NCBI GenBank assembly: GCA_039800105.1 | Contig: JBDLRI010000078.1 | Location: forward strand, 6,469-70,468 | Length of the DNA: 64,000 nt | Origin: Pseudomonadota bacterium | GTDB lineage: Bacteria > Myxococcota_A > UBA796 > SXON01 | Direction: 5' to 3' | Part shown: positions 1,736-58,399 of the stretch, piece by piece | Layout: every line of letters starts with the position of its first letter | Numbering within the stretch: position 1 is the first letter of the stretch | Program-made: the position numbers and the translations under genes | The notes under the pieces: generated by a model | What the model was told of the DNA's origin: nothing | The model's input: only the letters and a program-made list of their open reading frames with translations | Databases searched by the model: none

Positions 1736-1775
1736 CTGGGGCGGAGGGGGCCGGCCCCCTCCGCAACGCCTCCCC
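1736..1775 (-). repeat. G/C hairpin repeat, short form, copy A (intergenic)
   Basis: CTGGGGCGGAGGGGGCCGGCCCCCTCCGCAACGCCTCCCC, containing the 24-nt perfect palindrome GCGGAGGGGGCCGGCCCCCTCCGC. Confidence 0.85.
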
Positions 1776-1779
1776 CGAC

Positions 1780-2553
1780 GTGACGATCGTGATCCCTTGC
1801 TCCCGAGGACGCCCCGCGGGGCTCGACGGATGGCGCGGACAGTCCGGCGCGCCGCGGGTGCTGCTGCTGTGCAACGGCGGCTACGACGGGGCGGACGTGG
1901 TCGGACTGTCCGGCGTGGACGTCCGGCGCGTGGCGTGGAAGGGGCACGGCCGGACGCGCCAGGCGGCCTTGGCGGACGTGGCCACGCCGTTCGTCCTCTT
2001 CACCGTGGACGACGCCGTTCCCGTGGGCTGCGACGGGGTCGTGCGCCTGATCGACGCGCTGGAGGCGGGCGGCTGGGATGCCGTCACCGCGCGGCAGGTC
2101 CCGCCCGTGGACGCCGATGCGGTGACCCGCGCGCGGCTGGCGGCGTGGACCCCGGAGGGGGAGGGGCCGGTCGCCACCGACCGCCTCGACCACGTCTGCG
2201 CCCTGCATCGCGTGGAGGTCCTGCGGACGCGTCCGCTGCCGGACGTGCCGATCGCGGAGGACTGGGCCTGGGCGCAGGGCTGGCAGGGGCCGGGGCGCGT
2301 GCGCGCGGGGGACCGGCCGAGACTCGGCTACGCGCCGGCGGCCCGGGTCGTCCACGGGCACGTCCGCACGTTTCGGTCGCTGCTTCGACGCACCGCCGCC
2401 GAGCACGGCGTGCGGGTGGCGTGTGGCGAGTCCCCCGCGGTGCCCGACGTGCGTCGTCTGCTCGCGGCGTTGCCGGGAGTGCTCGGTCCCGACGTGCGCG
2501 GCGCGCTCGGGGAGCTGCTCGGGCAATGGTGGGCGGGGCGGCGCGTGGGTTGA
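1780..2553 (+). CDS. glycosyltransferase family 2-like protein
   Basis: GTG start chosen inside the 181..2553 read-through ORF. N-terminus VTIVIPCSRG and FVLFTVDDAVP (DxD-like) fit a GT-A fold. Start is uncertain; hairpin repeat 1736-1775 lies immediately upstream. Confidence 0.5.
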   Translation: MTIVIPCSRGRPAGLDGWRGQSGAPRVLLLCNGGYDGADVVGLSGVDVRRVAWKGHGRTRQAALADVATPFVLFTVDDAVPVGCDGVVRLIDALEAGGWDAVTARQVPPVDADAVTRARLAAWTPEGEGPVATDRLDHVCALHRVEVLRTRPLPDVPIAEDWAWAQGWQGPGRVRAGDRPRLGYAPAARVVHGHVRTFRSLLRRTAAEHGVRVACGESPAVPDVRRLLAALPGVLGPDVRGALGELLGQWWAGRRVG

Positions 2554-2595
2554 CGGCGCGAGCGGGACTGTGAGAGGCTCGCGCGCGGAGAACCC

Positions 2596-5052
2596 ATGAT
2601 GCGCGCGAACGCCTGCCTGCTGCTCCCTCTCGGTGTCCTCGGACTCGCGCTCTCGACGCCCGCGCGTGCGGCGGAGCCGGCCCTTCCGCCGGACGTGGCG
2701 CGCCTGGCGGCTGCAGAGGCGAAGATCCAGGCCGCGGTCGGTTCCGAGGGCGTCACGCAGGGCGCGTACGTCGATCTCTTCGCCGGGTTCCTCGTGGAGA
2801 CGGCCACGAACATCGCGCGCGAGCAAGGCGTCGCCGAGAAGCTGGCGCTCGACTCCTCCGGCTTCCGGATCATGGCGGAGACCCGGGTCGCGGCGGCGGT
2901 GCGGGACGCGGTGGAGGTCGAGGGGAAGGAGCGCCAGGACGCCCTGTACAAGCTGATGGAGACCATCTCGACGCGCGCGGCGGCGCATGCGCTGCTGGCG
3001 CAGTGGCTCGGCGCGCCGGACCCCGGCACCCTCGCGAAGCGGGCGAAGGAGGCCGCGGACGCCAAGGCGGACGCCGCCTTCGCGGCCGCGCGCAAGGAGG
3101 CGGACGAGGCGCGCGGGGATCGTCCGATGACGGACAAGGAGCGCACCGAGCGCGCCCTCGAGGACGCGCTCCGCGCGGCCGCGCGCGATCCGGAGGTGCG
3201 CGGGGCGCGCGTGCAGGCGCGTTTCCGCAGCCAGGTGATCACCGAGCAGGCCGCCTCTGCGTTCCGGGTTCCCGCGGACGGTGTCGCGCTCGCATACGAC
3301 GAGGGCAACGCCGGGGACGGCAACGGTGTCGTGGACGCGGGGGAATGGGTGGCGTTCACCATTCCGCTGGAGAACGCGACCCGGGAGCCGTGGTTCAGCA
3401 GCTCCGCGTGGGTGCAGTCGGCGAGCCCCTGTGTGTGGACCCCGTCAAGTCAGGAGATCGAGCTTCCGGAGCTGGCCCCCGGCGGCAAGGGCGCCGTGAC
3501 CGTGCGCGCCTTCGTGTCCGAGACCTGCCCCGACCAGTCCCGCGCGCGGTTCACCGTCACCCTCCGCGACACGCATCGCACGCAGGCCGCGCCGGTGGTC
3601 GTGGAGGTCGGGCTGGTCGTGACGAACGTGGGGGCCGCCGCCCTGCGCCGGTACACCATGGACGTCGACGTGCCCGGGTCCAGCCGGCCCGCCAAGGCCG
3701 GGAAGTTCGCGCCGAACACCCGCGCCGAGTTGTCCGCCGGGCTGGAGATCCCCCGCGCGGGCGCGTCGCGCGCCGTGCAGGCGTGGGGCTTCTCGCGTCC
3801 GGCGGAATCGATTGTCGCCGAGCAGTCGTTCGCGATCGGGGAGCCGATGGTGGCGGTCTCGGGCGGCACCCTCAGTGCCTTCGCCCCCTTCGACGATCTC
3901 GACGTGCGCATCGGGTCGCGCGCCGCCTCACCGCTTCCTCCCGGCCGCGGGCCCGGCGACGGCGGGGCGATCGCCCTCGAGACCCGCGTGGAGTACCCCG
4001 CGCCGGAAGGGTCCTGGGCGCCTCCACGCAAGGTGGAGCTTCCCAAGCCGTCTCCGGCGTCGGTCACCGTCGTGCCCGCCCCGAGCGCGGACGAGGTGCT
4101 GGGCCTGGTGAAGAAGTTCGTGTCGGTCGAGGCCCGCGCCACGACGCCGGCCGCGGGTGCGCTGGCGGCGGCGTCGACCGACGCCTACGACGCCGTGCTC
4201 GACGCCGCGGCCTTCCGCATGGCGTGGTGCCGTGCGACCACCCCGCCCGCCAAGGCCGGCGAGCCGGACCCCTGTGACCCCAAGGCGTGCCCCGACCCGA
4301 CGCCGCAGAAGCCCGTCGCACCCGTGCAGGTGCCCGTGCCGGCGTTCGAGGAGCCGGTGGCGTACACCTTCCGTCACTACGCCTGGGCCGAGTTCGACAC
4401 CGGTTCGGCGCGCGCGGAGGTCCCGCCGCCGCCGCGTCCCGTCGCCGCGCCGAAGCCCGAGCCGGCGCCCGCACCCAAGGCCGCCCCGCCGCCCCCGCCG
4501 GCTGCCAAGGCGCGGGAGCCGCGCGCACAAACGCAGCACGCGGTGTCGGTGGGGCTGAACCGCGGGTCCACGGACCTTTCCACGGTGTCCTGGGATGGGA
4601 GCGACTTCCTCGATGTGGCCGGCCGCACGGCCTCGGGCGAGCAGTTGCTCGGGATCGGCTACGCCTTCGGCACGGTCGACCGCATGCGGCTGGGCCTGGC
4701 CACCGGCTCGTACGACGCGCCCGCCCTCGGGGTGCTCACCGTGTCGGGCGGCTACGGACGCGCCCTCTCCTACGCACGCGGCTGGGTCGAATTGGAGCCG
4801 CACGCGGACCTCGGTGTCGCCGTGGTGACGGCAAACGGCGGCGGCGAGACGACGTTGTTCCTGGATGCCGGCGCGGACCTGCGCTGGTACCCCGTGCGAC
4901 CGGTGGGCCTCTACGCCGGCGCCGCGTGGCGGGTCCAGCCGGGCACGTTGTCGGGTCCGGTCGTGACGGGCATGGCCGCGCCCGACAACGTGGGGTCCCT
5001 CCGGAACGCGAGTGGCCTCCGCTTCGACGCGGGCGTGGGCTTCCACTTCTGA
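2596..5052 (+). CDS. secreted 818-aa protein with a C-terminal outer-membrane beta-barrel-like domain
   Basis: GGAGAA RBS and signal peptide MMRANACLLLPLGVLGLALSTPARAAEP. Helical A/K/E-rich N-region, Ig/CARDB-like segment (DGNGVVDAGEWVAFTIPLENA) and Pro-rich linker. The C-terminal ~230 aa have an alternating-hydrophobic pattern and end in GVGFHF (terminal Phe). Confidence 0.6.
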   Translation: MMRANACLLLPLGVLGLALSTPARAAEPALPPDVARLAAAEAKIQAAVGSEGVTQGAYVDLFAGFLVETATNIAREQGVAEKLALDSSGFRIMAETRVAAAVRDAVEVEGKERQDALYKLMETISTRAAAHALLAQWLGAPDPGTLAKRAKEAADAKADAAFAAARKEADEARGDRPMTDKERTERALEDALRAAARDPEVRGARVQARFRSQVITEQAASAFRVPADGVALAYDEGNAGDGNGVVDAGEWVAFTIPLENATREPWFSSSAWVQSASPCVWTPSSQEIELPELAPGGKGAVTVRAFVSETCPDQSRARFTVTLRDTHRTQAAPVVVEVGLVVTNVGAAALRRYTMDVDVPGSSRPAKAGKFAPNTRAELSAGLEIPRAGASRAVQAWGFSRPAESIVAEQSFAIGEPMVAVSGGTLSAFAPFDDLDVRIGSRAASPLPPGRGPGDGGAIALETRVEYPAPEGSWAPPRKVELPKPSPASVTVVPAPSADEVLGLVKKFVSVEARATTPAAGALAAASTDAYDAVLDAAAFRMAWCRATTPPAKAGEPDPCDPKACPDPTPQKPVAPVQVPVPAFEEPVAYTFRHYAWAEFDTGSARAEVPPPPRPVAAPKPEPAPAPKAAPPPPPAAKAREPRAQTQHAVSVGLNRGSTDLSTVSWDGSDFLDVAGRTASGEQLLGIGYAFGTVDRMRLGLATGSYDAPALGVLTVSGGYGRALSYARGWVELEPHADLGVAVVTANGGGETTLFLDAGADLRWYPVRPVGLYAGAAWRVQPGTLSGPVVTGMAAPDNVGSLRNASGLRFDAGVGFHF

Positions 5053-5090
5053 CGCTCGCGGCCCACGCGCGGGCGGGCTACCTCCCGCGC

Positions 5091-7133
5091 ATGGGCGTCG
5101 CGTGGCTCGTCGGGCTGGGGTGGCTTGCGGCGTGCGGCACCCCGTCGCCGTCCGGGCCCCCGGCCCTCGACGCCTACGCGGCGCGCGGGGCGCCCGTGAC
5201 GGCGGCGCGGTGGGAGGGTCCGTGGCGCGTGCAGGTGTTGGCGCGAACCCCCGGGGAGCCCGATGTGCAGGCGTTCGCCGAGGTGCTCGGCGCGCCCGTC
5301 GTGGCGTGGGACGGCGCGCGACTGACCCCGCCGGTGGGCACGGCCGCCCTCGTATGGGTGGCTTCCGAGGCCGACGCGGAGCGGGTTTCCGCGGCTGGCG
5401 TCGCCGCCGGGGGCGGCGAGGGTGTGGCGGTGTTGTCCGCGACGTTCAGGTCTGGGGCGGGGGGCCGCAGCCCCCCGCAACGCCCCCCGCCGGACGCGGA
5501 CGCGAAGCCCGCGCGGGAGGTCTGGGCGGCGCGGCTCGCGTGGGCCGGTCTCGGGGTGGTGGATGCGGGGGCCGAGCTCGGCCTGTGGGCGGATCCGGCG
5601 TGGGCGGATTCGCACCCGGCGCGGGCGGCGCAGGCCGCGGCGTTCGCGGTCGCGTCGCACTACGCGGTGCCCGCGCGACCGGTGCCGGTGGACGACGACG
5701 TTCCGGCGGGCCTCGCGGAGCACCTGGCGGGCGCGGACGCCGAGGATGTGACCTCGGGCGATCCGCGACGCCGGGCGGCAGCTGCCGGCGATGCCGCGTC
5801 CGTGTGGGCCGCGACCGATCCGGATCCCGCGGTGCGCCTTGCGCTCGCGGCATCCGCGCGGGATCCCGCCGTGCGCGCGCGCCTCTCCCGGGACGCCGAC
5901 GCGCTGGTGCGCGCGCGTGCGCTCGACGGGTTGGACGATCCCGCGCTGCTGGCCGAGTCGCTCTCCGACGGCTCCAGCTTCGTGCGCGTCGTGGCCGTGG
6001 CGCGGTTGGCGGAGCTCTCCCGCGCGGGGAGCACCGCGCCGCAGGTGGAGGCCGCCCTCTCCGCGGCCAGCGGCTCCCCCGACGCTTACGTGCGCTGGAA
6101 GGCGGCGTCCGGTCTGCGTGACGTCGCGCGGCTCGCGGCGCTGCTGGCGGGGGATGCGGACGCGGATGTGCGCCGGGAGGCCGCGCGGCGCCTCGGCGTG
6201 CTCGGGGACCCTGCGGGGGCCGCTGCGCTCGTCGCTGCGACGCACGACCGCAACAGCTTCGTCCGCCGATGGGCGGCCGCCGCGCTCGGGCGGGTGCCGA
6301 CCCCCGACGCGGAGGCGGCCCTGCGCCGGGCCGCGGAGGACCCTACGGCGTTGGTGGCGGCCGCGGCCGCAGACGCCCTGCGGGCGCGCGGCGTGCCCAT
6401 GCCCGTGCGTCCGCCGTGGCGGCCGCCCGGCCCGCCCGAGGATGACGCGGCGCTCGATTCGCTGCTGGCCAGCCCGGATGCCACCGCGCGCAAGGACGCC
6501 GCGAAGTTTACGGTCGGTCGCCCGGGCGCGGTGGCGCGACTCGCGGCCCTGCGGTCGGACCCCGACAGCGAGGTGCGCAAGGCGGCGATGGAGGCCCTCG
6601 GGCGCGGGGCGTCGGAGGCGGACCGCCCCGCCCGCCTGGCGGCGTTGCGGCCCGGGCTGGACGATCCGGACGTGGATGTGCGTGTCACGACGCTGTCGTC
6701 CTACGCGGCGCTCGGGCGTGTCCCCGAGGACGCGCGCGCGCGGGTCGTGGCGCTCGCGGGGGATCCCGACACGGAGCTGCGTCTCCGGGCGGTGGAGGCG
6801 CTCGCCGCGGATCCGGACCTGCCGCCCGCCCTGCTTCCCGTGACGGACCCCGACGAGCGCGTACGGGCCGCCATCGTGGGACGCCTCCCCGCGCGCCTCG
6901 ACCCGGCGGAGCCGTGCGTGCTGGTCCGCCGCGCGGCGGGGCGCGGCACGGGAATCCTCGATGCCCCGGGGGACGACCCGCACCGTCGCGCCTGGTCCGC
7001 CGGGCGGCTTCACGACCTCGATCGGCTCGTCCACGCACGGTTCTCCTGGAACCTTCCGGAGGACCTGCCGCCGAGCCACCGCGCGCTGCGCCCGCCGGTC
7101 GTGCGCGCCTTCGGCCACCCCGACGAGGGGTGA
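5091..7133 (+). CDS. HEAT-repeat (PBS-lyase type) lipoprotein
   Basis: ATG 5091 inside ORF 4287..7133; lipobox MGVAWLVGLGWLAAC. Many DPxVR...AL..LGD repeats. Hairpin repeat copy 5452-5488 is read in frame. Confidence 0.65.
   Translation: MGVAWLVGLGWLAACGTPSPSGPPALDAYAARGAPVTAARWEGPWRVQVLARTPGEPDVQAFAEVLGAPVVAWDGARLTPPVGTAALVWVASEADAERVSAAGVAAGGGEGVAVLSATFRSGAGGRSPPQRPPPDADAKPAREVWAARLAWAGLGVVDAGAELGLWADPAWADSHPARAAQAAAFAVASHYAVPARPVPVDDDVPAGLAEHLAGADAEDVTSGDPRRRAAAAGDAASVWAATDPDPAVRLALAASARDPAVRARLSRDADALVRARALDGLDDPALLAESLSDGSSFVRVVAVARLAELSRAGSTAPQVEAALSAASGSPDAYVRWKAASGLRDVARLAALLAGDADADVRREAARRLGVLGDPAGAAALVAATHDRNSFVRRWAAAALGRVPTPDAEAALRRAAEDPTALVAAAAADALRARGVPMPVRPPWRPPGPPEDDAALDSLLASPDATARKDAAKFTVGRPGAVARLAALRSDPDSEVRKAAMEALGRGASEADRPARLAALRPGLDDPDVDVRVTTLSSYAALGRVPEDARARVVALAGDPDTELRLRAVEALAADPDLPPALLPVTDPDERVRAAIVGRLPARLDPAEPCVLVRRAAGRGTGILDAPGDDPHRRAWSAGRLHDLDRLVHARFSWNLPEDLPPSHRALRPPVVRAFGHPDEG
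5452..5488 (-). repeat. G/C hairpin repeat, short form, copy B (inside the HEAT lipoprotein CDS)
   Basis: CTGGGGCGGGGGGCCGCAGCCCCCCGCAACGCCCCCC, read in frame as ...GAGGRSPPQRPP. Confidence 0.85.
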
Positions 7134-7148
7134 GCACCGATCCGGCCC

Positions 7149-7188
7149 GGGGGCGTTGCGGGGGGCGGGCCAAGCCCCCCGCCCCAGG
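7149..7188 (+). repeat. G/C hairpin repeat, short form, copy C (between convergent genes)
   Basis: GGGGGCGTTGCGGGGGGCGGGCCAAGCCCCCCGCCCCAGG. 9-bp stem GCGGGGGGC/GCCCCCCGC. Lies between stops at 7133 (+) and 7197 (-). Confidence 0.85.
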
Positions 7189-7196
7189 AGCGCGCC

Positions 7197-7391
7197 TCAG
7201 AACACCATGTAGATGAACGGCGCCACGTAGTGCATCCCCTGCAGGAACAGGAGCACCCCTCCGAGCAGGACCAGCACCGCCACCAGCGGGAGCATCCACC
7301 ACCGTCCGCCGCGGACGAGCAGCAGCAGCAGCTCCCCGACGGTGCCGAGTCGCATCAGGAAGGCCTCGGTGCGGCCCAGTCCCGCGCTCAT
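7197..7391 (-). CDS. DUF5989-family small membrane protein
   Basis: 64 aa ending ...LLGGVLLFLQGMHYVAPFIYMVF, the family's characteristic APFIY..F end. ATGA overlap with the upstream carbamoyltransferase, its usual neighbour. Confidence 0.75.
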   Translation of the reverse strand: MSAGLGRTEAFLMRLGTVGELLLLLVRGGRWWMLPLVAVLVLLGGVLLFLQGMHYVAPFIYMVF

Positions 7392-9112
7392 CGCGGGCGC
7401 TCCACGCGGAAGCCCTCGATGTGGAGGGCGTCGAGCGCGGAGCGGTGCAGCGCCGCCATGGCATCCACCGGGGTGTCGACCATCGGGTCCCCCTTGAGGT
7501 TGAAGGACGTGTTGAGCAGGACGGGTACGCCGGTGGCGTCGCCGAGGTGACGCAGGATCGTCGCGAAGCGAGGATGTTCTTCGTGGTCGACCACCTGCAC
7601 GCGGGCGGAGCCGTCCACGTGCGTGACGGCAGGGAGGATCGCGCGGGCGTCGGGGCGTACCGTCGCCGTGGCGAGCATGACCCGCGACGGCTGCGCGGCG
7701 GCCGCGGGGATGTCGAACCACGCGTCGGCGTGCTCCGCGAGGACGGCGGGGGCGAACGGCCGGAATGGCTCGCGGTGCTTCACCCGCGCGTTCACCCGCT
7801 CCGCCACGTCGGGTCCCCGGGCATCGGCGAGGATGGAGCGATGCCCGAGCGCGCGCGGTCCCCATTCGCCGCGTCCGTCGAACCAGCCGACCACCCGTCC
7901 CGCGGCCAGGTCCTCCGCGACCCGCGCGAGCGCGTCGTCGCCGAGGTCCTCGACCTTCGCGCCCAGGTCCACGAGCATGTCGTGCACCTCCCCGCGCCCA
8001 TGCGAGCGCCCGAGGTCCACGCGACGCAGGGCCGGTCCCCGCGGGTTGCCGAGCACGGCGTGCCAGGCCCAGAGCGCGGCACCCATCGCGCCCCCCGCGT
8101 CCCCCGCGGCGGGGTGGATCCACAGGTGGGCGTGCGGGCCCTCCCGCGCGAGGCGGGCGTTGGCCACCGCGTTGAGCGCCACGCCGCCGGCGAGGCACAG
8201 CGCCTCGGAGTCGACGCGCGCGCGCGCGTGCCGCGCCAGGCCGAGCAGGGCGTCCTCGAGCACCGCCTGCGTGCTGGCGGCGATGTCCGCGAAGCGCCGA
8301 CCGTCGGGATCGTCGGGATCGAAGGGCGTCCCGGGAACCCTCGGCGCGCCGAGCAGGGCCTCCAGGCGCGGCGTGAAGCTCTCCGTGGGGTGCCAGTGCC
8401 AGCAGAACGCCTCGAGGTCGCAGGTGAAGCCGCCGTCGGGGTCGCGCCGGAGCAGTCGGTCGAGCGCCTCGCGGTGGCGGGGCGTTCCCCAGGCCGCCAT
8501 GCCCATGACCTTGTACTCGCCCTCGTTGACCGCGAAGCCGAGGTAGGCGGTCATCGCGGAGTAGAACAGTCCCAGCGAGTGCGGGAAGCGGATCTCGGCG
8601 AGCGGGGTGAGCGCGGTGCCCTCCCCGCGCCAGAGGGTGGTCGTGGCCACCTCTCCGACGCCGTCCACGGTCAGCACCGCGGCGTGTGCGTGCGGCGAGG
8701 TGTAGAACGCGCTGGCCGCGTGCGAGAGGTGGTGCTCGCAGAACAGGATGCGCTCCGGACGGACGGCGAAGGCCCGTGCCAGCGTGGTGCGCACCCAGAG
8801 CTTGTCACCGAGCCAGGCATGGGCCTGCCGCGGGAAGCTCCGCCAGCTGCGCGGGAACGTCGCGATGGCGTTGTGCAGCACCCGTTCGAAGGTGCGGAGC
8901 GGTTTCTCGTAGAACACGAGGTGGTCGAGGTCGCCCGCCTGGATGCCGGCGCGCCCCATGCACCACGCGGCGGCCCGGAGCGGAAGCGCGGCGTCGTGCT
9001 TGATGCGGGAGAACCGCTCTTCCTGGGCTGCCGCCACGACCTCCCCGTCCCGGAGCAACACCACGGCGGAGTCGTGGTAGAGCGCGGAGACTCCGAGGAT
9101 CCAGGTGGCCAC
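7388..9112 (-). CDS. NodU/CmcH-family carbamoyltransferase
   Basis: 574 aa. N-terminus MATWILGVSALYHDSAVVLLRDGEVVAAAQEERFSRIKHD is the conserved Kae1-like start of this family, and length fits the YrdC-like C-domain architecture. Confidence 0.9.
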   Translation of the reverse strand: MATWILGVSALYHDSAVVLLRDGEVVAAAQEERFSRIKHDAALPLRAAAWCMGRAGIQAGDLDHLVFYEKPLRTFERVLHNAIATFPRSWRSFPRQAHAWLGDKLWVRTTLARAFAVRPERILFCEHHLSHAASAFYTSPHAHAAVLTVDGVGEVATTTLWRGEGTALTPLAEIRFPHSLGLFYSAMTAYLGFAVNEGEYKVMGMAAWGTPRHREALDRLLRRDPDGGFTCDLEAFCWHWHPTESFTPRLEALLGAPRVPGTPFDPDDPDGRRFADIAASTQAVLEDALLGLARHARARVDSEALCLAGGVALNAVANARLAREGPHAHLWIHPAAGDAGGAMGAALWAWHAVLGNPRGPALRRVDLGRSHGRGEVHDMLVDLGAKVEDLGDDALARVAEDLAAGRVVGWFDGRGEWGPRALGHRSILADARGPDVAERVNARVKHREPFRPFAPAVLAEHADAWFDIPAAAAQPSRVMLATATVRPDARAILPAVTHVDGSARVQVVDHEEHPRFATILRHLGDATGVPVLLNTSFNLKGDPMVDTPVDAMAALHRSALDALHIEGFRVERPR

Positions 9113-9119
9113 CGCCGCC

Positions 9120-9869
9120 TCAGCCCTGTGCCCGGGCCGCGATCGCGACCGGGCGTGGGTCGACGGGCGGGGGCTGCCAGCCGCCGCGCTCCACCCGCGC
9201 GAAGGGACGCAACGGCCCCACGCCCGCGACGTAGACGAGGCCGAGCCACAGGTGGGCCATCGCAGCGCCCACGGCGTGGCTGGCGCGCAGCCACCCCTCC
9301 CGCATCCGGTCCAGGCGCACGCGCCGCAGGGCCGCCGTCACGTCCCGCCCGCGCCCGGACTCCCGCGCGCGGGTGAGCTCCGCGCGGCTGTAGGAGACGT
9401 GGAAGTGCTCGTCCTTGAGGATGTCGCGCAGCGCCTCGCGGGTATCGGGATCGGGCAGATCGCGTCGCAGGTACACGTTGAACTGCTCGACGGCGTCGCG
9501 CTCCGCGACGTGGACGAACGCGAGGAACGGAAGCTCCCCCATGCGCTCGAAGAGGGTGCGACCCCCGACCATGCCGTGGTGGTGGACCACGCCGGAGTCG
9601 GTCAGCGCCGCGTCGGCGCGGTCGTCCCGCGCCCCGAGGGCCTCTGCGCGCGCCTGGAACACCGCCGCGTGGCGCCGCTCGTCGAGCGCGTGCAGGAAGT
9701 ACTTGCGACGCAGATCGCGACGGGGCGTGGCCTCGGCGGCGGCCAGCATGTCCAGCGCGCTTGCGCGCTCGGTGTCACGGAAGGAGCGCAGGAATCGCAG
9801 GGGCCAGCCCGGCAGTCGCCAGGCCACCTCTCCGGAGAGGGCGATCCACGCGCGTCGCACGCTTCCCAC
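9120..9869 (-). CDS. ferritin-like (diiron-carboxylate type) protein with a hydrophobic C-terminal segment
   Basis: 249 aa with two ExxH motifs (LDERRHAAVF, KDEHFHVSY) spaced as in four-helix-bundle diiron proteins. Lies 7 nt upstream of the carbamoyltransferase on the same strand. Confidence 0.55.
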   Translation of the reverse strand: MGSVRRAWIALSGEVAWRLPGWPLRFLRSFRDTERASALDMLAAAEATPRRDLRRKYFLHALDERRHAAVFQARAEALGARDDRADAALTDSGVVHHHGMVGGRTLFERMGELPFLAFVHVAERDAVEQFNVYLRRDLPDPDTREALRDILKDEHFHVSYSRAELTRARESGRGRDVTAALRRVRLDRMREGWLRASHAVGAAMAHLWLGLVYVAGVGPLRPFARVERGGWQPPPVDPRPVAIAARAQG

Positions 9870-9918
9870 GCTGACCTCCCGGGGTGCGTTCCCCGTGGCA
9901 GGACATTATCCCGGCTCC

Positions 9919-11136: not shown

Positions 11137-11175
11137 CGCGGGCCCATCCGCGGCGATAGCACCGGTTCAGGTCCG

Positions 11176-12798: not shown

Positions 12799-12836
12799 GC
12801 CCTGCCACCGAACACGGCCGCGCGCACGACGTCGTG

Positions 12837-12865
12837 TTGACGGGCCTTTCCGGATCGACTACAAC
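12837..12865 (+). promoter_or_regulatory. candidate sigma70-type promoter of the MerR-isc operon
   Basis: TTGACG (12837-12842), 17-nt spacer, TACAAC (12860-12865), 24 nt before ATG 12889. An AT-containing island in an otherwise G/C-rich intergenic region. Confidence 0.35.
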
Positions 12866-12888
12866 CTTCACGTACACGTAAGGGTCGT

Positions 12889-13395
12889 ATGGACGGGCAG
12901 GCACACATGCGGATCGGGGAGCTCTGCGAGCGCTCCGGGCGTACGGCGCGCACGCTGCACTTCTACGAGGAGTTGGGGCTTCTGGCGCCTGCGGCCCGCA
13001 CCCGCGGGGGCTTCCGTCTCTACGACGAGAACGCGCTCGTGCGGATCCACTGGATCGGGCGGCTCCAGGAGCTCGGGTTCTCCCTGCCTGAGATCAAGGG
13101 GTTCCTGGCGAACCTTCACGGTCACCCCAGCGCGCCCGCGATGATGGGGGACCTGCACCGGTTCTACGCCGGAAAGCTTCTCGAGACGCGCGCCCAGGTG
13201 GTGCGGCTGCAGGCGCTGCAGCGCGAGCTGGAGGCGAGCCTGGAGTACCTCGGCGCCTGCCTCGGGTGCGCGCCGGCCACCACGCGTCACGCGTGCCCGT
13301 CCTGCAACGTGCCGGACCACGCGGATCGCGCGATGCCGCCGCTCGTCGCGGCGGTCCACGCCCCTCCCACGGAAGGACACCCATGCCGGTCCTGA
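12889..13395 (+). CDS. MerR-family transcriptional regulator with C-terminal CX2CX8CX2C motif
   Basis: HTH signature [26 protein letters not shown]...FRLYDE, coiled dimerisation helix, then [19 protein letters not shown]. Start could instead be ATG 12907. Its 3' end overlaps iscS by 13 nt. Confidence 0.8.
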
Positions 13396-14609: not shown

Positions 14610-14621
14610 GAGACCCGCATC

Positions 14622-15026: not shown

Positions 15027-15028
15027 CC

Positions 15029-15367: not shown

Positions 15368-15386
15368 CGGCCGCGCGGAGGGACGG

Positions 15387-15941: not shown

Positions 15942-15942
15942 C

Positions 15943-17826
15943 ATGGCAGCCAACATCGGCATCGACCTCGGGACCACCCACAGCCTCGTGGCCGTCGTGC
16001 TCGGCGGGAAGGCGCGCTGCCTGCTGGACGAGACCGGCGACGCGCTGCTCCCGTCCGCCGTGCGGGTGGAGGACGACGGCACGCTGGTGGTGGGGCGCGC
16101 CGCGCGGGACGAGGCGGCGGCGCACCCGGGCCGCACCTTCACCAGCACGAAGCGCTTCATGGGCCGCGCGCCCGCGGACTGCCGCGAGGACGCCGCGCGC
16201 CTGCGCGCCACCCTCGACGAGGCCGAGGGCCGCTTCGTGCGGTTCCGCGCGGGGTCGCGCACGATCACGCCGGTGGAGGTCGCGGCGGCGGTGCTCAAGA
16301 CGCTGCGGGCGCGTGCGGTGGAGTGCCTCTTCGGAGAGCCGGGCGGCGCGGTGATCACGGTGCCGGCCTACTTCGACGACGCCCAGCGGCAGGCCACGAA
16401 GGACGCGGCGCGCCTCGCGGGCCTCGAGGTCCTGCGGCTGCTCAACGAGCCGACCGCGGCCGCGGTGGCCTACGGGCTGGACGCGCGCGCAAGCGGCCGC
16501 TTCGCCGTCTACGACCTCGGCGGCGGCACCTTCGACGTGAGCATCCTCGAGCTGGACGACGGCATCTTCCAGGTGCTCGCGACCGCCGGCGACACCCACC
16601 TCGGTGGGGACGACTTCGATCGCCTCGTCGCGGAGCACCTCCGCAGCGCGCTCGGGCTCGGCGACCTCGACGACTCCGCGCATCGGGCGCTCCTGCAGGC
16701 CGCCGAAGCCGCCAAGCGCCGCCTTGGGGAGGCGGACGCGACCGAGGTGGCCTTCGCGGGGCGCAGCTGCACGCTCACGCGGGAGACCTTCGACGCGCTC
16801 GTGGCACCGGTTCTGGCCCGCACCGGCGACGCCGCGCGCCAGGCACTGGGCGATGCCGGCCTGACGGCCGATCAGCTCGACGCCGTGGTGCTCGTCGGCG
16901 GGTCCACCCGCGCCCCCGTGGTGCGCCGCTACGTGGAGGGGCTGTTCGGGCGTGCGCCCCGCTGCGACCTCGACCCGGATCAGGTCGTGGCGCTCGGCGC
17001 GGCCATGCAGGCGGACATGCTCAGCGGTGCGGCCTCCATGGCCGATGACATGCTGCTGCTCGACGTGATCCCGCTGTCGCTGGGGCTGGAGCTCATGGGC
17101 GGCGTGGTGGAGAAGTTCATCCCGCGCTGCTCGACCATTCCCGTCAGCGCGCACCACACCTTCACGACCCACGTGGACGACCAGACCAGCATCGACCTGC
17201 ACGTGGTCCAGGGCGACCGCGAGCTGGCGCGCGACAACCGCTCGCTCGCGCGCTTCCGCCTCGCGGGGCTTCCGCCCCTGCCGGCCGGGGTGCCGCGCGT
17301 GCGCGTGGAGTTCACCGTGGACGCCGACGGGCTGCTCACCGTGTCCGCGCGGGAGGAGTACACCGGCCTCGAGACGCGGGTGGACGTGCGCCCCAGCTAC
17401 GGCCTCTCCGAGGAGGAGATCGAGCGCATGCTCGAGGACAGCATCGACCACGCCGAGGACGATGTCGAGGCGCGCATGGCCATCGAGGCGCGCGTGGAGG
17501 CCGAGGGCATCCTGGCGGCGCTGGACAAGGCGCTGGCCACCGACCGCGCCCTGCTCGAACCCGGCGAGGAGGAACGCGTGGTGCAGGTCGCCGAGGCGCT
17601 CCGCGCCGCGCTTCCGGGCTCCGACCGCGCGCGCGTGCGGGAACTCTCGCAGGAGCTCGACGCCGTGACCGCGCCGTTCGCGCAGCGGCGCATCGAGCGG
17701 GATCTGACCCGCGCCCTGTCCGGCCGCGACGCGCTCGCGGTGGACGCCGAGCTGGCCTCCCGGGCCGCGTCGGCCGGGGGCGTTGCGGGGGGTGGCCAGC
17801 CCCCCGCCCCAGGCGCAGGAGCCTGA
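15943..17826 (+). CDS. hscA: Hsp70-type Fe-S chaperone HscA
   Basis: MAANIGIDLGTTHSLVAV, DLGGGTFDVS, and the Hsp70 ATPase and substrate-binding layout. The last ~17 codons are encoded by hairpin repeat copy 17776-17813. Confidence 0.93.
   Translation: MAANIGIDLGTTHSLVAVVLGGKARCLLDETGDALLPSAVRVEDDGTLVVGRAARDEAAAHPGRTFTSTKRFMGRAPADCREDAARLRATLDEAEGRFVRFRAGSRTITPVEVAAAVLKTLRARAVECLFGEPGGAVITVPAYFDDAQRQATKDAARLAGLEVLRLLNEPTAAAVAYGLDARASGRFAVYDLGGGTFDVSILELDDGIFQVLATAGDTHLGGDDFDRLVAEHLRSALGLGDLDDSAHRALLQAAEAAKRRLGEADATEVAFAGRSCTLTRETFDALVAPVLARTGDAARQALGDAGLTADQLDAVVLVGGSTRAPVVRRYVEGLFGRAPRCDLDPDQVVALGAAMQADMLSGAASMADDMLLLDVIPLSLGLELMGGVVEKFIPRCSTIPVSAHHTFTTHVDDQTSIDLHVVQGDRELARDNRSLARFRLAGLPPLPAGVPRVRVEFTVDADGLLTVSAREEYTGLETRVDVRPSYGLSEEEIERMLEDSIDHAEDDVEARMAIEARVEAEGILAALDKALATDRALLEPGEEERVVQVAEALRAALPGSDRARVRELSQELDAVTAPFAQRRIERDLTRALSGRDALAVDAELASRAASAGGVAGGGQPPAPGAGA
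17776..17813 (+). repeat. G/C hairpin repeat, short form, copy D (inside the hscA 3' end)
   Basis: GGGGGCGTTGCGGGGGGTGGCCAGCCCCCCGCCCCAGG, read as GGVAGGGQPPAPG, 11 nt before the hscA stop. Confidence 0.85.
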
Positions 17827-17828
17827 AC

Positions 17829-18242: not shown

Positions 18243-18271
18243 CGTCTCTCCCTCCGGGCGGTCGGGTCGGA

Positions 18272-52810: not shown

Positions 52811-52834
52811 CGGGGGCGCGGAGGGCCCTGCGCG

Positions 52835-54589
52835 TCAGCGGCGGGTGCCACGCGCGCGGACGCGGGCCATCTGTGCGTAGGTGCCCACGTGCGGGATGCG
52901 GGAGTCCATGGCGCGGGCCGCGTCGAGATCCTCGCACGCGCCGTGCCAGTCCTTCAGGTAGAACCGCGCCAGGCCGCGGCGGCACAACGCGAGCGCGTGG
53001 TCGGGGTGTTCCCGGAACGGGTCGGCCACCAGCGCGGAGTCGTAGGCGACGACGGCGGCGCCGTAGTCCTTCTGCGCGAAATAGGCCTCGGCGCGCACCA
53101 TGCGCGGCCCCGCCGCGAACGGGGCGAGGGCCTCGGCGGCGGCCGCGTCGCGGAGCGCGGACGTGCTGTCGGCAAGCTCCACGTGGACCCGTGCGCGGGC
53201 CAGGAGCGCCTCGAGGTGGGACGGGCACAGCGCGAGGACCGCGCTCCACCCCGCGAGCGCCCCGGGCAGATCGGCGACCTCCGTGCGGCGCAGGGCTTCC
53301 GCGAGGGCGGCGCGCACGTCGGGATGGTCCTCGGGCAGGACGGCGGCGGGCGGTCGCGGGTCGGTGGACTCCTCCCGAAACTCCGCGACCACGGGGGCCG
53401 CCGGGGGTTCCGGCGCGACGGGGCGGGCGACCGAGGGCGTCGCGTCCTCGTCGCTTTCCAGCTCGACATCGTCGCGGATCACGGTGGGGACATCGTCGTA
53501 GAGGCCGTCCGCCTCCGGAGGCGGCTGCAGGCCCGCGACCCGGATGGCGGTGATGACGCGGGCGAAGGCATCCCCGTCGGGTGCGGCCTCCGGAGGCTCC
53601 GGCAGGGTGAACTCCGGCACCACCGCGCGCGGCGTGGCGACGGGGTCCTCGTCGACCGGCTCGGCGCCCTCGCCGGAGATCGGGAGCGAGTCCCACCGGT
53701 AGCCGGTGACGAAGCCCGCGCCGCGCCGTACGGCCTGCACCGGCTGCGCGACCGTGGGGAAGCGGATTTCAGGGACCTGGCCGCGCAACTCCGCGGGCTC
53801 CTCGGCGCTGGACCGCCCGTCGCCGCCGAGGACGTAGTCCGCGTCGGTCCATGCGGGTCGCGGGGGCGGGAGGGCAACCTCCGTGACCAGGACGGGCGTT
53901 GCGGGCACGTCGCCGCGGTGGGCCCCGTCAGGGGCCTCGCGCGGTGCGCGTGGGGAGGACGTGTCCGCCGGAGGCGGCGCCGCGCCGGGCTCGGCGAGCG
54001 CCGGTGGCGGGGGCGTTGCGGGGGCGGCCTGAGCCCCCGCCCCAGGAGGCGGAGCGGCCCAGGCGGGATGCGGCTCCTCCGGTGTCGGTTCCGCAGGAAC
54101 CTCGTGAGGCACGGCATCATCGGGGAGCGCGACGAGCTCCAGCACCCGGTCGCGCGGGAGACCCATGCCGAGCAGGCGGACCGCGAGGGCCGCGCGTACG
54201 AGCGGCTCGGAGAAGGTGTCGTCCGGGGGGGCGTCGTCGCGACGCGCGGGGCCGGGCGTGAACGCCGCCCGGGCTTCCTGTTCGAGCGCCGCGATGCGCG
54301 TGCGCACGGCACGGGCGCGGGCCGCCTCCGCGAGGGCCTGGGGCGAGAAACGCGGCACCGCGTCCTCGGACGCCGACGATTCCGGCGCACGCCCGTCCGC
54401 CACGTCCTGCAGGCGTCGGATGCGAACCAGCACGGGGGTAGCGGGCCGGCCGGGCCGCGCCGCGGCCGCGAGGCGCCGGGCGCGCAGGGGCGGGAGGTTC
54501 GAGGCGGCGACCTCCAGCAGCGCGCCGCGCGCGTCCTCGACGGTGGCCAGCAGGCGCCGTGCGGCCTCCAGCGCGCGGGTGTCCGCCAC
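52835..54589 (-). CDS. Pro-rich protein with C-terminal TPR-like domain
   Basis: GTG 54589 with AAGGAG 9 nt upstream. Long P/A/E-rich middle; the C-terminal ~170 aa are TPR-like (AYFAQKDYGAAVVAYDSAL...). Hairpin repeat 54009-54046 is read in frame. Confidence 0.6.
   Translation of the reverse strand: MADTRALEAARRLLATVEDARGALLEVAASNLPPLRARRLAAAARPGRPATPVLVRIRRLQDVADGRAPESSASEDAVPRFSPQALAEAARARAVRTRIAALEQEARAAFTPGPARRDDAPPDDTFSEPLVRAALAVRLLGMGLPRDRVLELVALPDDAVPHEVPAEPTPEEPHPAWAAPPPGAGAQAAPATPPPPALAEPGAAPPPADTSSPRAPREAPDGAHRGDVPATPVLVTEVALPPPRPAWTDADYVLGGDGRSSAEEPAELRGQVPEIRFPTVAQPVQAVRRGAGFVTGYRWDSLPISGEGAEPVDEDPVATPRAVVPEFTLPEPPEAAPDGDAFARVITAIRVAGLQPPPEADGLYDDVPTVIRDDVELESDEDATPSVARPVAPEPPAAPVVAEFREESTDPRPPAAVLPEDHPDVRAALAEALRRTEVADLPGALAGWSAVLALCPSHLEALLARARVHVELADSTSALRDAAAAEALAPFAAGPRMVRAEAYFAQKDYGAAVVAYDSALVADPFREHPDHALALCRRGLARFYLKDWHGACEDLDAARAMDSRIPHVGTYAQMARVRARGTRR
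54009..54046 (+). repeat. G/C hairpin repeat, short form, copy G (inside the TPR-protein CDS, antisense orientation)
   Basis: GGGGGCGTTGCGGGGGCGGCCTGAGCCCCCGCCCCAGG, read on the minus strand as PGAGAQAAPATPP. Confidence 0.85.
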
Positions 54590-54595
54590 GGGCGG

Positions 54596-55126: not shown

Positions 55127-55200
55127 GCGCAACTCCTGGCGGGCGGAGGTTATCCGCCGTGGGCACGGCGAGCCAATGCGGGCCGGCGTGGGAGCGTCCC

Positions 55201-55644: not shown

Positions 55645-57788
55645 TGGGGGTGATGTGGACCCTCCTCCTTCTCGCGTGCAGCGACTACAACATCCAGAAC
55701 CGCCCTCCCGGAAAGGTCACCGAGGAGACGGACACGGGCTTCACCGTCGACACGGACGTGACCGAGGAGACCCAGGTGTGCCGCAACACCTGGACCACCA
55801 TGGCGGATGGCGTGTCCACGGACGAGGGCTGCACCCGCGAGCCGGTCGACGTGCCGCTCAGCACGCGCTTCGTCTGGGACAAGCCGTCGTGGGGGCAGTA
55901 CCCCGAGTACGGCCAGGCGCTCGTCACCCCGGTGGTCGGTCGCCTGGTGGATGAGAACGGCAACGGCACCACGGCCGATGATCCGGTCTACATCGCCGTC
56001 GTGACCGATGACGGCGTGCTGGACCGCCGGGACACGCACGGCGTCGTGCGCATGGTGCGCGGTACCGACGGGAACGAGTACCAACGGCCGGCGATCTACC
56101 GCATCGACACGCCGACCCAGCAGGTCTACCCCTACCGCTACTCCGGTCTCGCCCTCGGCGATGTCGACGGGAACGGCATTCCCGACATCGTCGGCATCGC
56201 GGAGGTGTTGGAGAACACCGGGACCGACACGGCCGGCGGCACCGACACGACCACGGACACGGGCACCGACACCGGCACCGACAGCGGTCCTCCGGACATT
56301 CCCGTGCGTCCGACGGGCATGTACGGGCGCGGCGGGTCGGGCGGCGGTTCCGGCGGAGGCTCCGGCGGGGGCACCGGCGGGGGCGATGCTCCGCCTCCGC
56401 CGTGTCGCGTCGTGGCGTGGACCAGCGAGGGAGAGCTGCTGTGGGTGGCGAACGACGCACCGCGCACCTGCGCGGGGGATGTCCCCGCGCTCGCCGATCT
56501 CGAGAGTGACGGCACCGTGGAGGTGATCGTCGGCGCGACGATCGTGGAGGGCGCCACGGGCGCCGTGCGCATCGTCGGCACGGCCGGCCAGGGGCGACAC
56601 CAGGCCTTCACCCAGATCGGCGCCATCAGCGTCCCCGCGGATCTCGAGGGCGACGGATTCATGGAGATCGTCACCGGCAACACCATCTACGAGCACAACG
56701 GTGTGGTGCGCTGCCAGACCGGCACGGACGACGGGTTCCCTGCCGTGGCTGACCTCGACGGGGACGGCACGGGGGACGTCGTGGCGGTCGGAAACGGCCA
56801 GATGCGCCTCTTCAAGCACGACTGCGCGCCGCTCGCCTCCTGGCCGCTCGGCGCTCCGGAGGCCGTGCAGAACGGCGGTCCTCCCACCGTCGCGGACTTC
56901 GACGGGGACGGCACGCCCGAGATCGGGGCGGCGTCGGCCACGATCTATGCCGTATTCGAGGTGGACGGGAGGATGCTCTGGTCCAACGACATCGTCGACG
57001 CCATCAGCTTCACCGCGGGTTCGTCGGTGTTCGACTTCGACGGCGACGGTCGCGCGGAGGTGGTCTACGCCGACGAGACGAGCCTGTGCATCTGGGACGG
57101 GGCGGACGGGCACGTCCGGTTGCAGGACCCCTACCATGCGTCGCGCACCCTGCACGAATACCCGGTGGTGGCCGACGTCGACGATGACGGGGAAGCCGAG
57201 CTGATCGTGCCCAATGGCGGCAACCACTACGGCGATCCGCGGCAGGGGCTCTACGTCCTGGAGAGCGCCACCACCCCGTGGCCGGCCGCGCGACCGGTGT
57301 GGAACCAGCATGCCTACAACATCGTCAACGTGAATGACGACCTCAGCATCCCGTCCCATCCACTCCCGAACTGGCCGAGCCACAACAGCTTCCGCTCCGC
57401 GGACATGATCCCGGTCTCGGCCGGCCGTTTCCCGGATGCCGTGGCGATCGTGGCGGTGTGCACCGAGGGCTGCGCCGAGTACGGGCAGATCGTGGTGGGC
57501 GTGAAGATCGCCAACGGAGGGACGTCGGACGTGCCCGCGGGTCTGAACGTGGCGTTCTACCTGGGGGACGAGGCGCTCGGGATCCCCCCGGTGCTCCACG
57601 AGCTGCGCACCCTTCCGAACGCCATCGCGCCGCGCGAGGCGAGCGACGTGATGGAGTTCACCGTCGACGCCATCGACGCCCTGCAGGGCATGCGCGTCGT
57701 GGTGGACGACGACGGGACCGGCGTGGGGGCGCTGTACGAGTGCCACGAGGAGAACAACCCGGCGTCCGTGTTCGGTCAGTGCCCCTGA
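55641..57788 (+). CDS. FG-GAP/VCBS-repeat lipoprotein with C-terminal CARDB-like domain (paralog 2)
   Basis: Lipobox WTLLLLACS. Repeats GDVDGNGIPDIV, ADLESDGTVEVIVG, ADLEGDGFMEIV, ADLDGDGTGDVV, ADFDGDGTPEI, FDFDGDGRAEVVY, ADVDDDGEAELIV. WNQHAYNIVNV motif; ends YECHEENNPASVFGQCP. Confidence 0.85.
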   Translation: MMGVMWTLLLLACSDYNIQNRPPGKVTEETDTGFTVDTDVTEETQVCRNTWTTMADGVSTDEGCTREPVDVPLSTRFVWDKPSWGQYPEYGQALVTPVVGRLVDENGNGTTADDPVYIAVVTDDGVLDRRDTHGVVRMVRGTDGNEYQRPAIYRIDTPTQQVYPYRYSGLALGDVDGNGIPDIVGIAEVLENTGTDTAGGTDTTTDTGTDTGTDSGPPDIPVRPTGMYGRGGSGGGSGGGSGGGTGGGDAPPPPCRVVAWTSEGELLWVANDAPRTCAGDVPALADLESDGTVEVIVGATIVEGATGAVRIVGTAGQGRHQAFTQIGAISVPADLEGDGFMEIVTGNTIYEHNGVVRCQTGTDDGFPAVADLDGDGTGDVVAVGNGQMRLFKHDCAPLASWPLGAPEAVQNGGPPTVADFDGDGTPEIGAASATIYAVFEVDGRMLWSNDIVDAISFTAGSSVFDFDGDGRAEVVYADETSLCIWDGADGHVRLQDPYHASRTLHEYPVVADVDDDGEAELIVPNGGNHYGDPRQGLYVLESATTPWPAARPVWNQHAYNIVNVNDDLSIPSHPLPNWPSHNSFRSADMIPVSAGRFPDAVAIVAVCTEGCAEYGQIVVGVKIANGGTSDVPAGLNVAFYLGDEALGIPPVLHELRTLPNAIAPREASDVMEFTVDAIDALQGMRVVVDDDGTGVGALYECHEENNPASVFGQCP

Positions 57789-57799
57789 GCACGACCGGC

Positions 57800-58399
57800 G
57801 TGCGGCGTCTCCTCCCGCTCGCGCTCCTGCTTTGCGCGATGCCCGCGCGGGCCGAGCCGACCGAGACGGACCGCCCGTACGCGGGCCACGGCGCCCTGAC
57901 CCTCGGCGCCGAGACGCTGACGCTGAACGGTCGACGGATCGTGGACGCGCGCGGCGGCGTGCTGGTGGATCGCCTGCTCGGACCCCCGGTGTCGCGGGCG
58001 GACGTCCTTTGCGCGGCGGACGAGGGTGCCGACGGCCTGGGGCAACTCCGCTGCTGGAACGCGCGGCGGGAACCCGTCACGCTCGCCGTGGGCGGTCGAC
58101 CCAGCCGCCTCGCGCTCGGAGGCACGCACCTGGCGTGGGTGGCCTCGCCGGGCGGCATTCCGCAGGTGTTCGTCGCGCCGCTGGACGGACACGCGGCCCC
58201 GCGGAGCCTCACGAACGTCGCGGTCGTGGCCGCGCGGGGGGAGGCGTTGCGGAGGGGGGCCGGCCCCCCTCCGTCCCCGACCCCCGGGAAGCCACCCCCG
58301 GGGTTCGTCCCGCCCCCGCTGCGCCAGTCACTGCGTTTTGACGGGGACATGCTGCGGTGGGAGGCCCAGGACGGCCACCACGAGGCGCGCTGGCGATGA
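57800..58399 (+). CDS. hypothetical secreted protein
   Basis: GTG 57800 (or 57779); signal peptide VRRLLPLALLLCAMPARAEP. Hairpin repeat 58236-58279 is read in frame. ATGA overlap with the M23 gene. Confidence 0.5.
   Translation: MRRLLPLALLLCAMPARAEPTETDRPYAGHGALTLGAETLTLNGRRIVDARGGVLVDRLLGPPVSRADVLCAADEGADGLGQLRCWNARREPVTLAVGGRPSRLALGGTHLAWVASPGGIPQVFVAPLDGHAAPRSLTNVAVVAARGEALRRGAGPPPSPTPGKPPPGFVPPPLRQSLRFDGDMLRWEAQDGHHEARWR
58236..58279 (+). repeat. G/C hairpin repeat, short form, copy H (inside the CDS at 57800-58399)
   Basis: GGGGGAGGCGTTGCGGAGGGGGGCCGGCCCCCCTCCGTCCCCG, nearly identical to the reverse complement of copy A; read as RGEALRRGAGPPPSP. Confidence 0.85.

Follow-up and report, generated by a model that had tools for sequence, protein, structure and literature searches.

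A family of short, almost pure G/C hairpins is scattered through a 64,000-nucleotide stretch of contig JBDLRI010000078.1 (positions 6,469 to 70,468 of the forward strand; assembly GCA_039800105.1), which is deposited under the name Pseudomonadota bacterium and placed by GTDB in Myxococcota_A (UBA796; SXON01). This whole stretch is called the window here, and positions within it are counted from its first letter. The element is an imperfect palindrome of ~36-45 nt and probably a repetitive extragenic palindromic (REP)-type repeat that has multiplied by insertion in an uncultured, high-G+C, Myxococcota-like clade. Direct support comes from its discreteness, the covariation of its stem, its bias toward gene 3' ends and convergent junctions, its orientation bias, its linked subfamilies, the differences in occupied sites between relatives, and the copies that lie in frame within genes.

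The initial annotation of this DNA had placed six copies in the window, and all six are found where it put them (Table 1). It had also claimed conserved flanks around differing loops, and in the alignment invariant GGCGTTGCGG and CCG.CCC blocks do surround a variable loop. The strict pattern GGCGTTGCGGRGGN{3,22}CCYCCGYCCC matches the window, whose G+C content is 74%, at these six copies only and never in 100 dinucleotide-preserving shuffles made from it; the excess over shuffled sequence on which the claim had been staked beforehand is thus present within the window, at 6 matches against 0. A covariance model built from 81 distinct copies scores the six at 33.5-51.4 bits and the next-best window sequence at 16.7 bits, the top non-copy matches being the opposite strands of true copies. 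With 33.5-51.4 bits standing against at most 16.7, the window therefore holds exactly six copies of a discrete family. The hairpin family is real, discrete and non-random.

Table 1. The six hairpin copies of the window, with the limits given in the initial annotation, the full span and the covariance-model score (CDS, coding sequence).
Copy	Initial limits	Span	Strand	Score (bits)	Variant and context
1	1736-1775(-)	1730..1778	-	47.1	A-variant GGAGGCGTTGCGGAGGGGG...CCCCCTCCGCCCCAGGAG; intergenic
2	5452-5488(-)	5446..5492	-	51.4	inside CDS of HEAT-repeat lipoprotein (5091-7133,+)
3	7149-7188(+)	7144..7193	+	50.7	between convergent genes
4	17776-17813(+)	17771..17818	+	49.5	3' tail of hscA (15943-17826,+), isc operon
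5	54009-54046(+)	54004..54051	+	49.6	inside predicted 584-aa protein gene (52835-54589,-), antisense
6	58236-58279(+)	58235..58285	+	33.5	most divergent A-variant GGAGGCGTTGCGGAGGGGGG...CCCCCCTCCGTCCCCGAC, G:T wobble

The element is not peculiar to its source genome and is common, almost unchanged, to many metagenome-assembled genomes (MAGs). A strict-pattern scan of one genome per GTDB species matched at least 87 contig stretches, which carry locus labels (L001-L087 and so on), just as P labels denote public protein calls. Among the matches listed, the carriers are almost all MAGs labelled Myxococcota, Polyangiaceae, Deltaproteobacteria, Pseudomonadota or proteobacterium, and at least 15 assemblies, with G+C contents of 57-78%, hold two or more copies each. 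As is general among REPs, many similar copies are dispersed in one genome: the window holds 6 in 64 kb, a relative has 4 in 16.5 kb, and in one MAG (CAYWGD) at least 32 are spread over 27 contigs. The tail comes in a flavour typical of each assembly, AAGA in 25 of 32 CAYWGD copies, AGGA in the window lineage and CAAA in a 57% G+C Polyangiaceae MAG, and the A-variant is confined, among the matches listed, to the window lineage and JBEIVK. A model-based search of the same loci adds only four further, more divergent copies. Single matches in Paracoccus, Nocardia, Azospirillum, a Betaproteobacteria MAG and a Dehalococcoidia MAG have low or no model score and were set aside as chance look-alikes, and a viral origin was discarded, with 1 match only in 2.9 million viral contigs.

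Some of the carriers' names call for comment. The CAYWGD01 MAG is labelled 'uncultured Enterobacteriaceae bacterium binchicken_co286_100', a label that is probably wrong: its G+C content is ~74%, and its KS-DH-AGPAT polyunsaturated fatty acid (PUFA) synthase is closest to Myxococcota MAG proteins. Other carriers are labelled just Pseudomonadota, Alphaproteobacteria or 'Aeromicrobium sp.' (a 1.7-kb contig). For the window itself, a protein 100% identical to its HscA belongs to an NCBI MAG that bears the label Pseudomonadota bacterium, the nearest named relatives of HscA, at 70-74% identity, are Myxococcota MAGs, and a JGI contig matches positions 13033-19620 at 99.8% identity. The family had been described as unnamed, and so it is as far as Rfam and the literature go: the element matches no Rfam 15 family at gathering thresholds in the window or at E<=1 in four loci, searches with its exact sequence and with myxobacteria combined with REP, MITE (miniature inverted-repeat transposable element) or palindromic terms find no description in the searchable literature, and Myxococcota is mentioned neither in the REP survey PMC3733652 nor in a 2025 REP survey.

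Aligned copies share the consensus (G)GGG-GGCGTT-GCGG(R)GGG(G)-loop 3-9 nt-CCC(Y)CCGC-CCC-A(R)GA. Beyond the upstream GGGG and the downstream ARGA the flanks carry no information, so the repeat unit is ~40 nt. The core measures 26-36 nt (34-43 nt including 4-nt flanks) and is, like REPs in general, a short imperfect palindrome able to form a stem-loop, here with a stem of 8-10 bp. An unpaired, asymmetric tag, GCGTT, sits on the 5' arm, and the 3' side runs out in the short tail CCC-A-R-GA.

The linked G>A and C>T changes that had been reported for the copies at 1736 and 58236 (GCGGAGGGGG...CCCCCTCCGC) are real and recur in related contigs. In 81 copies this R/Y pair is G:C 77 times, A:U 3 times and G:U once, and it is never unpaired; the same two window copies have a further linked change in common, GGAGGCGTT in place of GGGGGCGTT in the 5' flank. 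Over all 81 copies, 93% of the pair cells are standard, a share that drops to 54-68% if the 3' partner is shifted by 1-3 columns, and double-sided changes are seen at 4 stem positions. The lengths of the G-run and the C-run vary together (5/5, 6/6, 7/7), and in the ortholog of copy 3 (L089 12072-12119) both stem arms are shortened, from GCGGGGGGC/GCCCCCCGC to GCGGGGCC/GGCCCCGC. Predicted folding energies of -25 to -40 kcal/mol were rejected as proof of structure because G/C-only sequence reaches nearly the same stability after shuffling (z -0.02 to -2.9); the evidence for the stem is therefore its covariation and not its energy. The outer GGG/CCC helix and the GCGTT bulge are invariant, which makes a covariation test of them impossible, and their invariance is partly imposed by the search pattern; the covariance-model search also returned no variant of the GCGTT motif.

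Placement relative to genes is strongly biased. Genes were called in the window and in 80 high-G+C loci by a codon-bias scorer trained on long open reading frames (ORFs), and the calls agree with Pfam matches and public calls wherever such exist. Among 88 classified copies, 63 are intergenic, with 38 between convergent, 21 between codirectional and 4 between divergent genes, and ~20% are intragenic, with 14 internal to a predicted CDS, 3 in the last 60 nt of one and 1 within one near its 5' end; the other 7 lie at a locus edge or partly overlap a gene call. Counted against all junctions of each kind in the same loci, copies are present in 38 of the 91 convergent, 21 of the 319 codirectional and 4 of the 92 divergent ones (chi-square 87, p~1e-19). 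A tabulation of gene orientation and stop-codon distance had been proposed along with the initial annotation, and it reveals a bias toward 3' ends and convergent junctions, with copies 5-30 nt from stops (median ~14 nt on the tail (ARGA) side, 56 genes; ~26 nt on the tag side, 36 genes). Codirectional copies lie nearer to the upstream stop than to the downstream start. The element is thus extragenic, near 3' ends and preferentially at convergent or unidirectional junctions, as REPs generally are.

Orientation is biased as well: 17 of the codirectional copies are antisense to the upstream gene and 4 are sense (n=21, p=0.007). The usual transcript therefore reads stop-N(5-20)-UCUU-GGGGCGGGGGG-loop-CCCCCCGC-AACGCC-CCC. 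In the window, copy 1 lies 28 nt past the TGA of an M16 peptidase gene (188-1708,+), in whose mRNA it appears as the reverse complement, and ~80 nt ahead of a predicted gene at 1858-2553,+, while copy 3 lies 15 nt past the TGA of the HEAT gene (end 7133,+) and 8 nt from the stop of a DUF5989 gene (7197-7391,-). Copy 6 falls between a stop at 57788 and an M23 peptidase gene (start 58357 or 58411); it is possibly within a weak 206-aa ORF (57779-58399,+) that has neither a Pfam match nor a recorded gene call, and its coding status is uncertain. The stop codon TAG is used at 49 of 92 gene ends beside copies and at 195 of 527 ends of all predicted genes in the same loci, a modest enrichment that may reflect the codon usage of one MAG; a selenocysteine insertion sequence (SECIS)-like or stop-codon-linked function was dropped, as there is no reading-frame logic despite this enrichment. 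At L037 (~7715-7770) a tandem heptamer array (ctgcctc/cctgcct, at least 5 repeats) abuts the tag side of a copy.

Comparison of relatives reveals both persistence and turnover. The syntenic contig L089 (~79% protein identity) has copies 1, 2 and 3 at the same sites and in the same orientation; its ortholog of copy 1 (L089 6640-6688) is an identical copy in flanks that are 97% identical, and that of copy 2 is found at L089 10368-10414. The intergenic stretch that surrounds copy 1 (window 1690-1835 against L089 6600-6745) is 97% identical, above its coding neighbours, and is conserved for ~60 nt past the repeat toward the next gene. The element is also kept at an orthologous site in L063 and L066, with coding flanks 70-77% identical in nucleotides, and in L016 and L085, where the surrounding intergenic DNA is rearranged. 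Elsewhere the occupied sites differ. In the isc operon the window is filled at hscA-fdx and empty at iscA-hscB, and L090 is the reverse; the HEAT gene has received separate insertions at different sites in the window and P0122 on the one hand and in P0128 on the other; and three more distant contigs with the same HEAT gene (L092, L094 and L095) are free of copies over 22 kb each. The A-variant subfamily, defined by GGAGGCGTT and the A:T pair, occupies unrelated sites, namely copies 1 and 6 and others in L073, L089 and L090. No target-site duplication is found at 196 offset combinations with k=3-6 in 93 copies, and exact insertion boundaries were not obtained from filled and empty sites because, at 80% protein identity, the flanks have drifted too far apart. 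Together, the shared and differing sites, the linked subfamilies and the lack of duplication indicate a replicative spread without target-site duplication that would have been followed by long retention.

Intragenic copies are real and lie within called proteins, where they are predicted to be translated. In the window, 3-4 of the six copies are within ORFs. Copy 2 reads in frame as SGAGGRSPPQRPPP, with G+C at third codon positions (GC3) of 0.87-0.97 on both sides, and the public call P0121 (680 aa, HEAT lipoprotein) includes its peptide. When 11 homologues are aligned, SGAGGRSPPQRPPP(DADAK) appears as an insertion between two conserved blocks that is present in the 79%-identical P0122 and is a gap in the ten more distant ones. 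Copy 4 reads as GGVAGGGQPPAP and ends ~10 nt before the hscA TGA, so that the last HscA residues are …ASAGGVAGGGQPPAPGAGA*; fdx starts at 17829, and HscA homologues end near ...LGLK, without the copy 4 segment. The 80%-identical relative L090 has no copy at hscA-fdx and keeps the same GGAG-N-TGA-ATG junction as the window, and copy 4 is therefore in frame and leaves the operon junction intact. This operon is a complete isc Fe-S cluster operon (iscS, iscU, iscA, hscB, hscA, fdx; window 13383-18242, +), with a MerR-type regulator upstream in matching contigs. Copy 5 reads as PPGAGAQAAPATPPPP in a Pro/Ala-rich stretch of a 584-aa protein with a C-terminal TPR domain; GC3 in its flanks is 0.70-0.97, and the 99%-identical strain variant P0140, called from the same start, contains the peptide. 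Homologues of this protein match its C-terminal TPR part only, which leaves the insertion not verifiable by alignment, and the coding status of copy 5 rests on coding statistics.

Further cases come from other genomes. A Pfa3-like PUFA-synthase ORF (L079) has three copies in linker regions, two sense and one antisense; in a comparison with 12 homologues, two of these are in one MAG only, and the third recurs in two 79%-identical relatives and in no other homologue. Alignment thus confirms five intragenic copies, those in the HEAT lipoprotein, the hscA tail and the three in the PUFA synthase. A HEAT homologue in another MAG (P0128/L093; JAUXQH01) has an independent copy at a different site, which would be translated as GGALRGDAPPQED. 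Directly upstream of it (L093 10668-10693) lies a perfect G/C palindrome, CCCGGGGGGCCGGCCCCCCGGG, also translated (GSRGAGPPG), which suggests that other G/C hairpin insertions may occur in JAUXQH01-type genomes. Each frame and strand yields its own peptide (GGVAGG, GGALRG, LGAGG…PRNAPP, …PATPP), so the conservation is at the DNA level. Stop-free frames abound: of 93 copies, 77 lack a stop in every one of the six frames, and the remaining 16 have five open frames.

How would such an element spread and be tolerated? Copies would survive where they are harmless, a few nucleotides downstream of stops and mainly between convergent genes. They would also survive in frame within flexible protein linkers and tails, because almost no frame on either strand holds a stop and all encode a Gly/Ala/Pro/Arg-rich peptide. 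Insertion may proceed via a single-stranded DNA hairpin that is handled by a tag-recognising, duplication-less enzyme, either of the HUH/Y1 kind, like the REP-associated tyrosine transposases (RAYTs), or something new, and the asymmetric tag and the tail could determine how it recognises and cleaves the folded single strand. In structural work on TnpA-REP, GTAG is reportedly the recognition and cleavage determinant for RAYTs. By this analogy a RAYT-like mobiliser can be proposed, but tentatively and with more doubt than confidence. RAYTs are single-copy genes. Inverted copy pairs flanking ~0.7-0.9 kb (L042, L060, L038) were considered as RAYT cassettes and rejected, as the ORFs between them are unrelated or unconvincing.

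At gene ends the transcribed hairpin may protect or define 3' ends, as an exonuclease block or as an aid to termination in which no U-tract takes part, and such a role in RNA is plausible, if not quite what one would expect. On neither strand are the six window copies followed by a T-run, and they thus lack the U-tract of an intrinsic (Rho-independent) terminator; one copy in a 57% G+C MAG (L081) is followed by TTTTTT. The hairpin lies within operons (hscA-fdx) and long ORFs, and it is therefore not an efficient unconditional terminator. Canonical hairpin-plus-T-run terminators number 0 in window 1-20000, against 2.6 expected from shuffles, and a consensus scan of the same 20 kb finds no sigma-70-like promoters, all of which is consistent with non-canonical transcription signals in the window lineage.

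Several observations weigh against a mobile REP-type repeat. No Y1_Tnp homologue is found in the 735 kb around copies with a synthetic Y1 consensus query (validated against Pfam Y1_Tnp, PF01797, at E=1.4e-18), a search that covered these loci only, and the element is absent from all 80 metagenomic Y1_Tnp loci retrieved, a result that is uninformative on host genomes. Gene contexts outside the window rest on the codon-bias gene caller made for this analysis. Above all, the core is unusually constant across 20 points of G+C and at orthologous sites with diverged flanks, which fits selection for a host function at least as well as it fits a purely selfish element; part of this constancy is ascertainment, as the collection scan used the strict pattern. 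Could the hairpin then be a host-selected cis element, vertically inherited and bound by a conserved protein such as a termination or 3'-processing factor, a topoisomerase or a nucleoid protein? A core that is near-identical in assemblies of 57-78% G+C, an invariant unpaired tag, orthologous sites that hold copies amid rearranged intergenic DNA, the filling of 42% of sampled convergent junctions, and a region devoid of canonical terminators are what such an element would leave. However, CDS copies occur in both orientations and several frames, with three in one gene, where a site for termination or a boundary would be damaging, and the linked-change subfamilies indicate copying from variant masters. 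Close relatives, moreover, fill different junctions, related genomes have no copies in 22 kb, and about 6 of ~55 window gene ends carry a copy. A purely host-selected origin is accordingly judged unlikely, and co-option of a mobile element is compatible with both sets of observations and would reconcile them. It is also rather improbable that the hairpin is very old and vertically persistent by virtue of a dedicated protein, be it a host factor that acts at 3' ends or convergent junctions or a mobilising enzyme of a new kind; such a protein would account for a tag and stem near-unchanged at 57-78% G+C and beside ~70%-identical flanks, and would also fit the repeated use of the element as a Gly/Ala/Pro linker.

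Other origins fare worse. A conventional MITE, that is, a deletion derivative of a DDE insertion sequence moved in trans via its terminal inverted repeats, would share with the element its shortness, palindromic sequence, dispersal and occasional intragenic location (PMC10969869), but ~40 nt is far below typical MITE length, and the copies form a tight hairpin with a 3-9 nt loop where a MITE has terminal repeats around a core. The target-site duplication that goes with such terminal repeats is absent too (k=3-6, 93 copies), and no insertion sequence-like gene was noticed beside copies in a transposase search that was aimed at the Y1/IS200 type only and did not cover DDE enzymes; a MITE is very unlikely. 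That the hairpin is a protein motif or a compositional by-product of a 74% G+C genome, made of Gly/Ala/Pro linkers and chance palindromes, might seem natural when shuffled G/C folds almost as well and several copies lie in Pro/Ala-rich protein segments. Such a by-product is hard to square with the complete absence of pattern matches in shuffled sequence or the 17-bit gap in model scores, nor would it yield copies that are mostly intergenic and that share nucleotide-level identity without synonymous variation in both orientations, several frames and unrelated peptides. It is effectively refuted and is given almost no credence. A mobile, tagged, REP-type hairpin remains the preferred explanation.

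Two further structures were seen. A second long conserved hairpin, ccgcccgtttgggccg...cggcccaaacgggtgggg followed by tcaaggagcc, stands beside orthologous copies in two MAGs (L011 ~3930-3990, L062 ~5675-5730); against Rfam at E<=1 it gives only two chance-level mir-8515 matches (L062 5677-5728, 30 bits against a gathering threshold of 100), and it may represent a further structured element or terminate an RNA that is not annotated. In the window, the sole Rfam match at the gathering threshold is a tRNA gene at 31669-31740 (+; 71.9 bits).

A REP-type mobile hairpin of this sort would add a well-defined family to a phylum for which none was found described, in abundant freshwater and uncultured lineages. 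It has a clean consensus and a working covariance model. As copies flag the 3' ends of genes and the junctions where genes converge, the element is of help in annotation. ORFs in high-G+C MAGs are also extended or broken up by it, and public calls include it (HscA, the HEAT lipoprotein, the PUFA synthase); annotators and builders of protein families should treat it as inserted DNA. With a tag unlike GTAG or CGTC and no known transposase, it offers a tractable case for studying the spread of tagged hairpins without a RAYT, and it is also useful for asking whether hairpins that lack a U-tract set the ends of transcripts in high-G+C bacteria.

Published REPs are palindromes of 20-40 bp with an unpaired GTAG or CGTC tag (variants TGTC and CCTC) and often a CCA tail (PMC3733652). 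Most are found <20 bp from a 3' end, in the gaps between convergent or unidirectional ORFs (PMC3733652), and the preference for convergent junctions is also reported in PMC1525189; intragenic, translated copies are known in several species, including the CGTC-type RPE-4 and RPE-6 of Rickettsia (PMC3733652). The suggestion that the window harbours a REP- or MITE-like dispersed repeat agrees with this record, as its genomic behaviour matches that of published REPs in placement and in intragenic copies (PMC3733652). The element is like the GTAG and CGTC REPs, those of E. coli and Pseudomonas included, in its G+C-rich palindrome, its tag and tail layout, its dispersal, its 3'-end placement, its translated minority and its occurrence as a multi-species family. 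The CGTC families, which have no known transposase, have a stem of 8-9 bp that opens with two A-T pairs, a loop of 4-5 nt and copies arranged mostly as head-to-head dimers (PMC3733652). Their CCA tail resembles the CCC-A of the element, and stem length is similar. However, the element bears GCGTT where the superfamily has GTAG, CGTC, TGTC or CCTC, and its tag places it outside that superfamily. It departs from the CGTC families in the stem, which is all G/C and opens with G-C/C-G pairs in place of two A-T pairs and carries a loop of 3-9 nt. Its copies are singletons, with one head-to-head pair in ~95, in contrast to the dimers that predominate in CGTC and many GTAG families. That sole, REPIN-like pair (L007 574-617(-) and 680-725(+)) is ~60 nt apart and has a small hairpin in its spacer. 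The hosts of the element are uncultured Myxococcota-like MAGs.

With the REPIN-RAYT system the element shares an asymmetric hairpin, the lack of target-site duplication, and persistence combined with lineage-specific gains; it differs in that doublets are rare and no RAYT was found in the loci searched. REPIN populations are usually described as far less uniform between genomes than the core of the element. Rickettsia palindromic elements are inserted in frame, translated and tolerated in surface or linker regions of unrelated proteins (PMC10969869), and the element is likewise found in frame in the HEAT lipoprotein, the hscA tail, the three PUFA-synthase sites and P0128. RPE-1, however, measures ~100-150 bp and belongs to an A+T-rich genome, whereas the element is ~40 nt, G/C-only and ~4/5 extragenic; the two are not homologous in sequence, and the resemblance is functional only. 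Terminator-like repeats such as the pneumococcal SPRITE and U-tract-less terminators also share a stable hairpin just past stops, which in the element comes without a T-run. Intragenic and 3'-end-hugging tagged REPs are already documented, so the surprise is moderate; less ordinary are the near-invariant core across base compositions, the lack of a known mobilising enzyme and the frequent translated copies. The element is best filed as a GCGTT-tagged, all-G/C, singleton REP family of uncultured Myxococcota-like bacteria.

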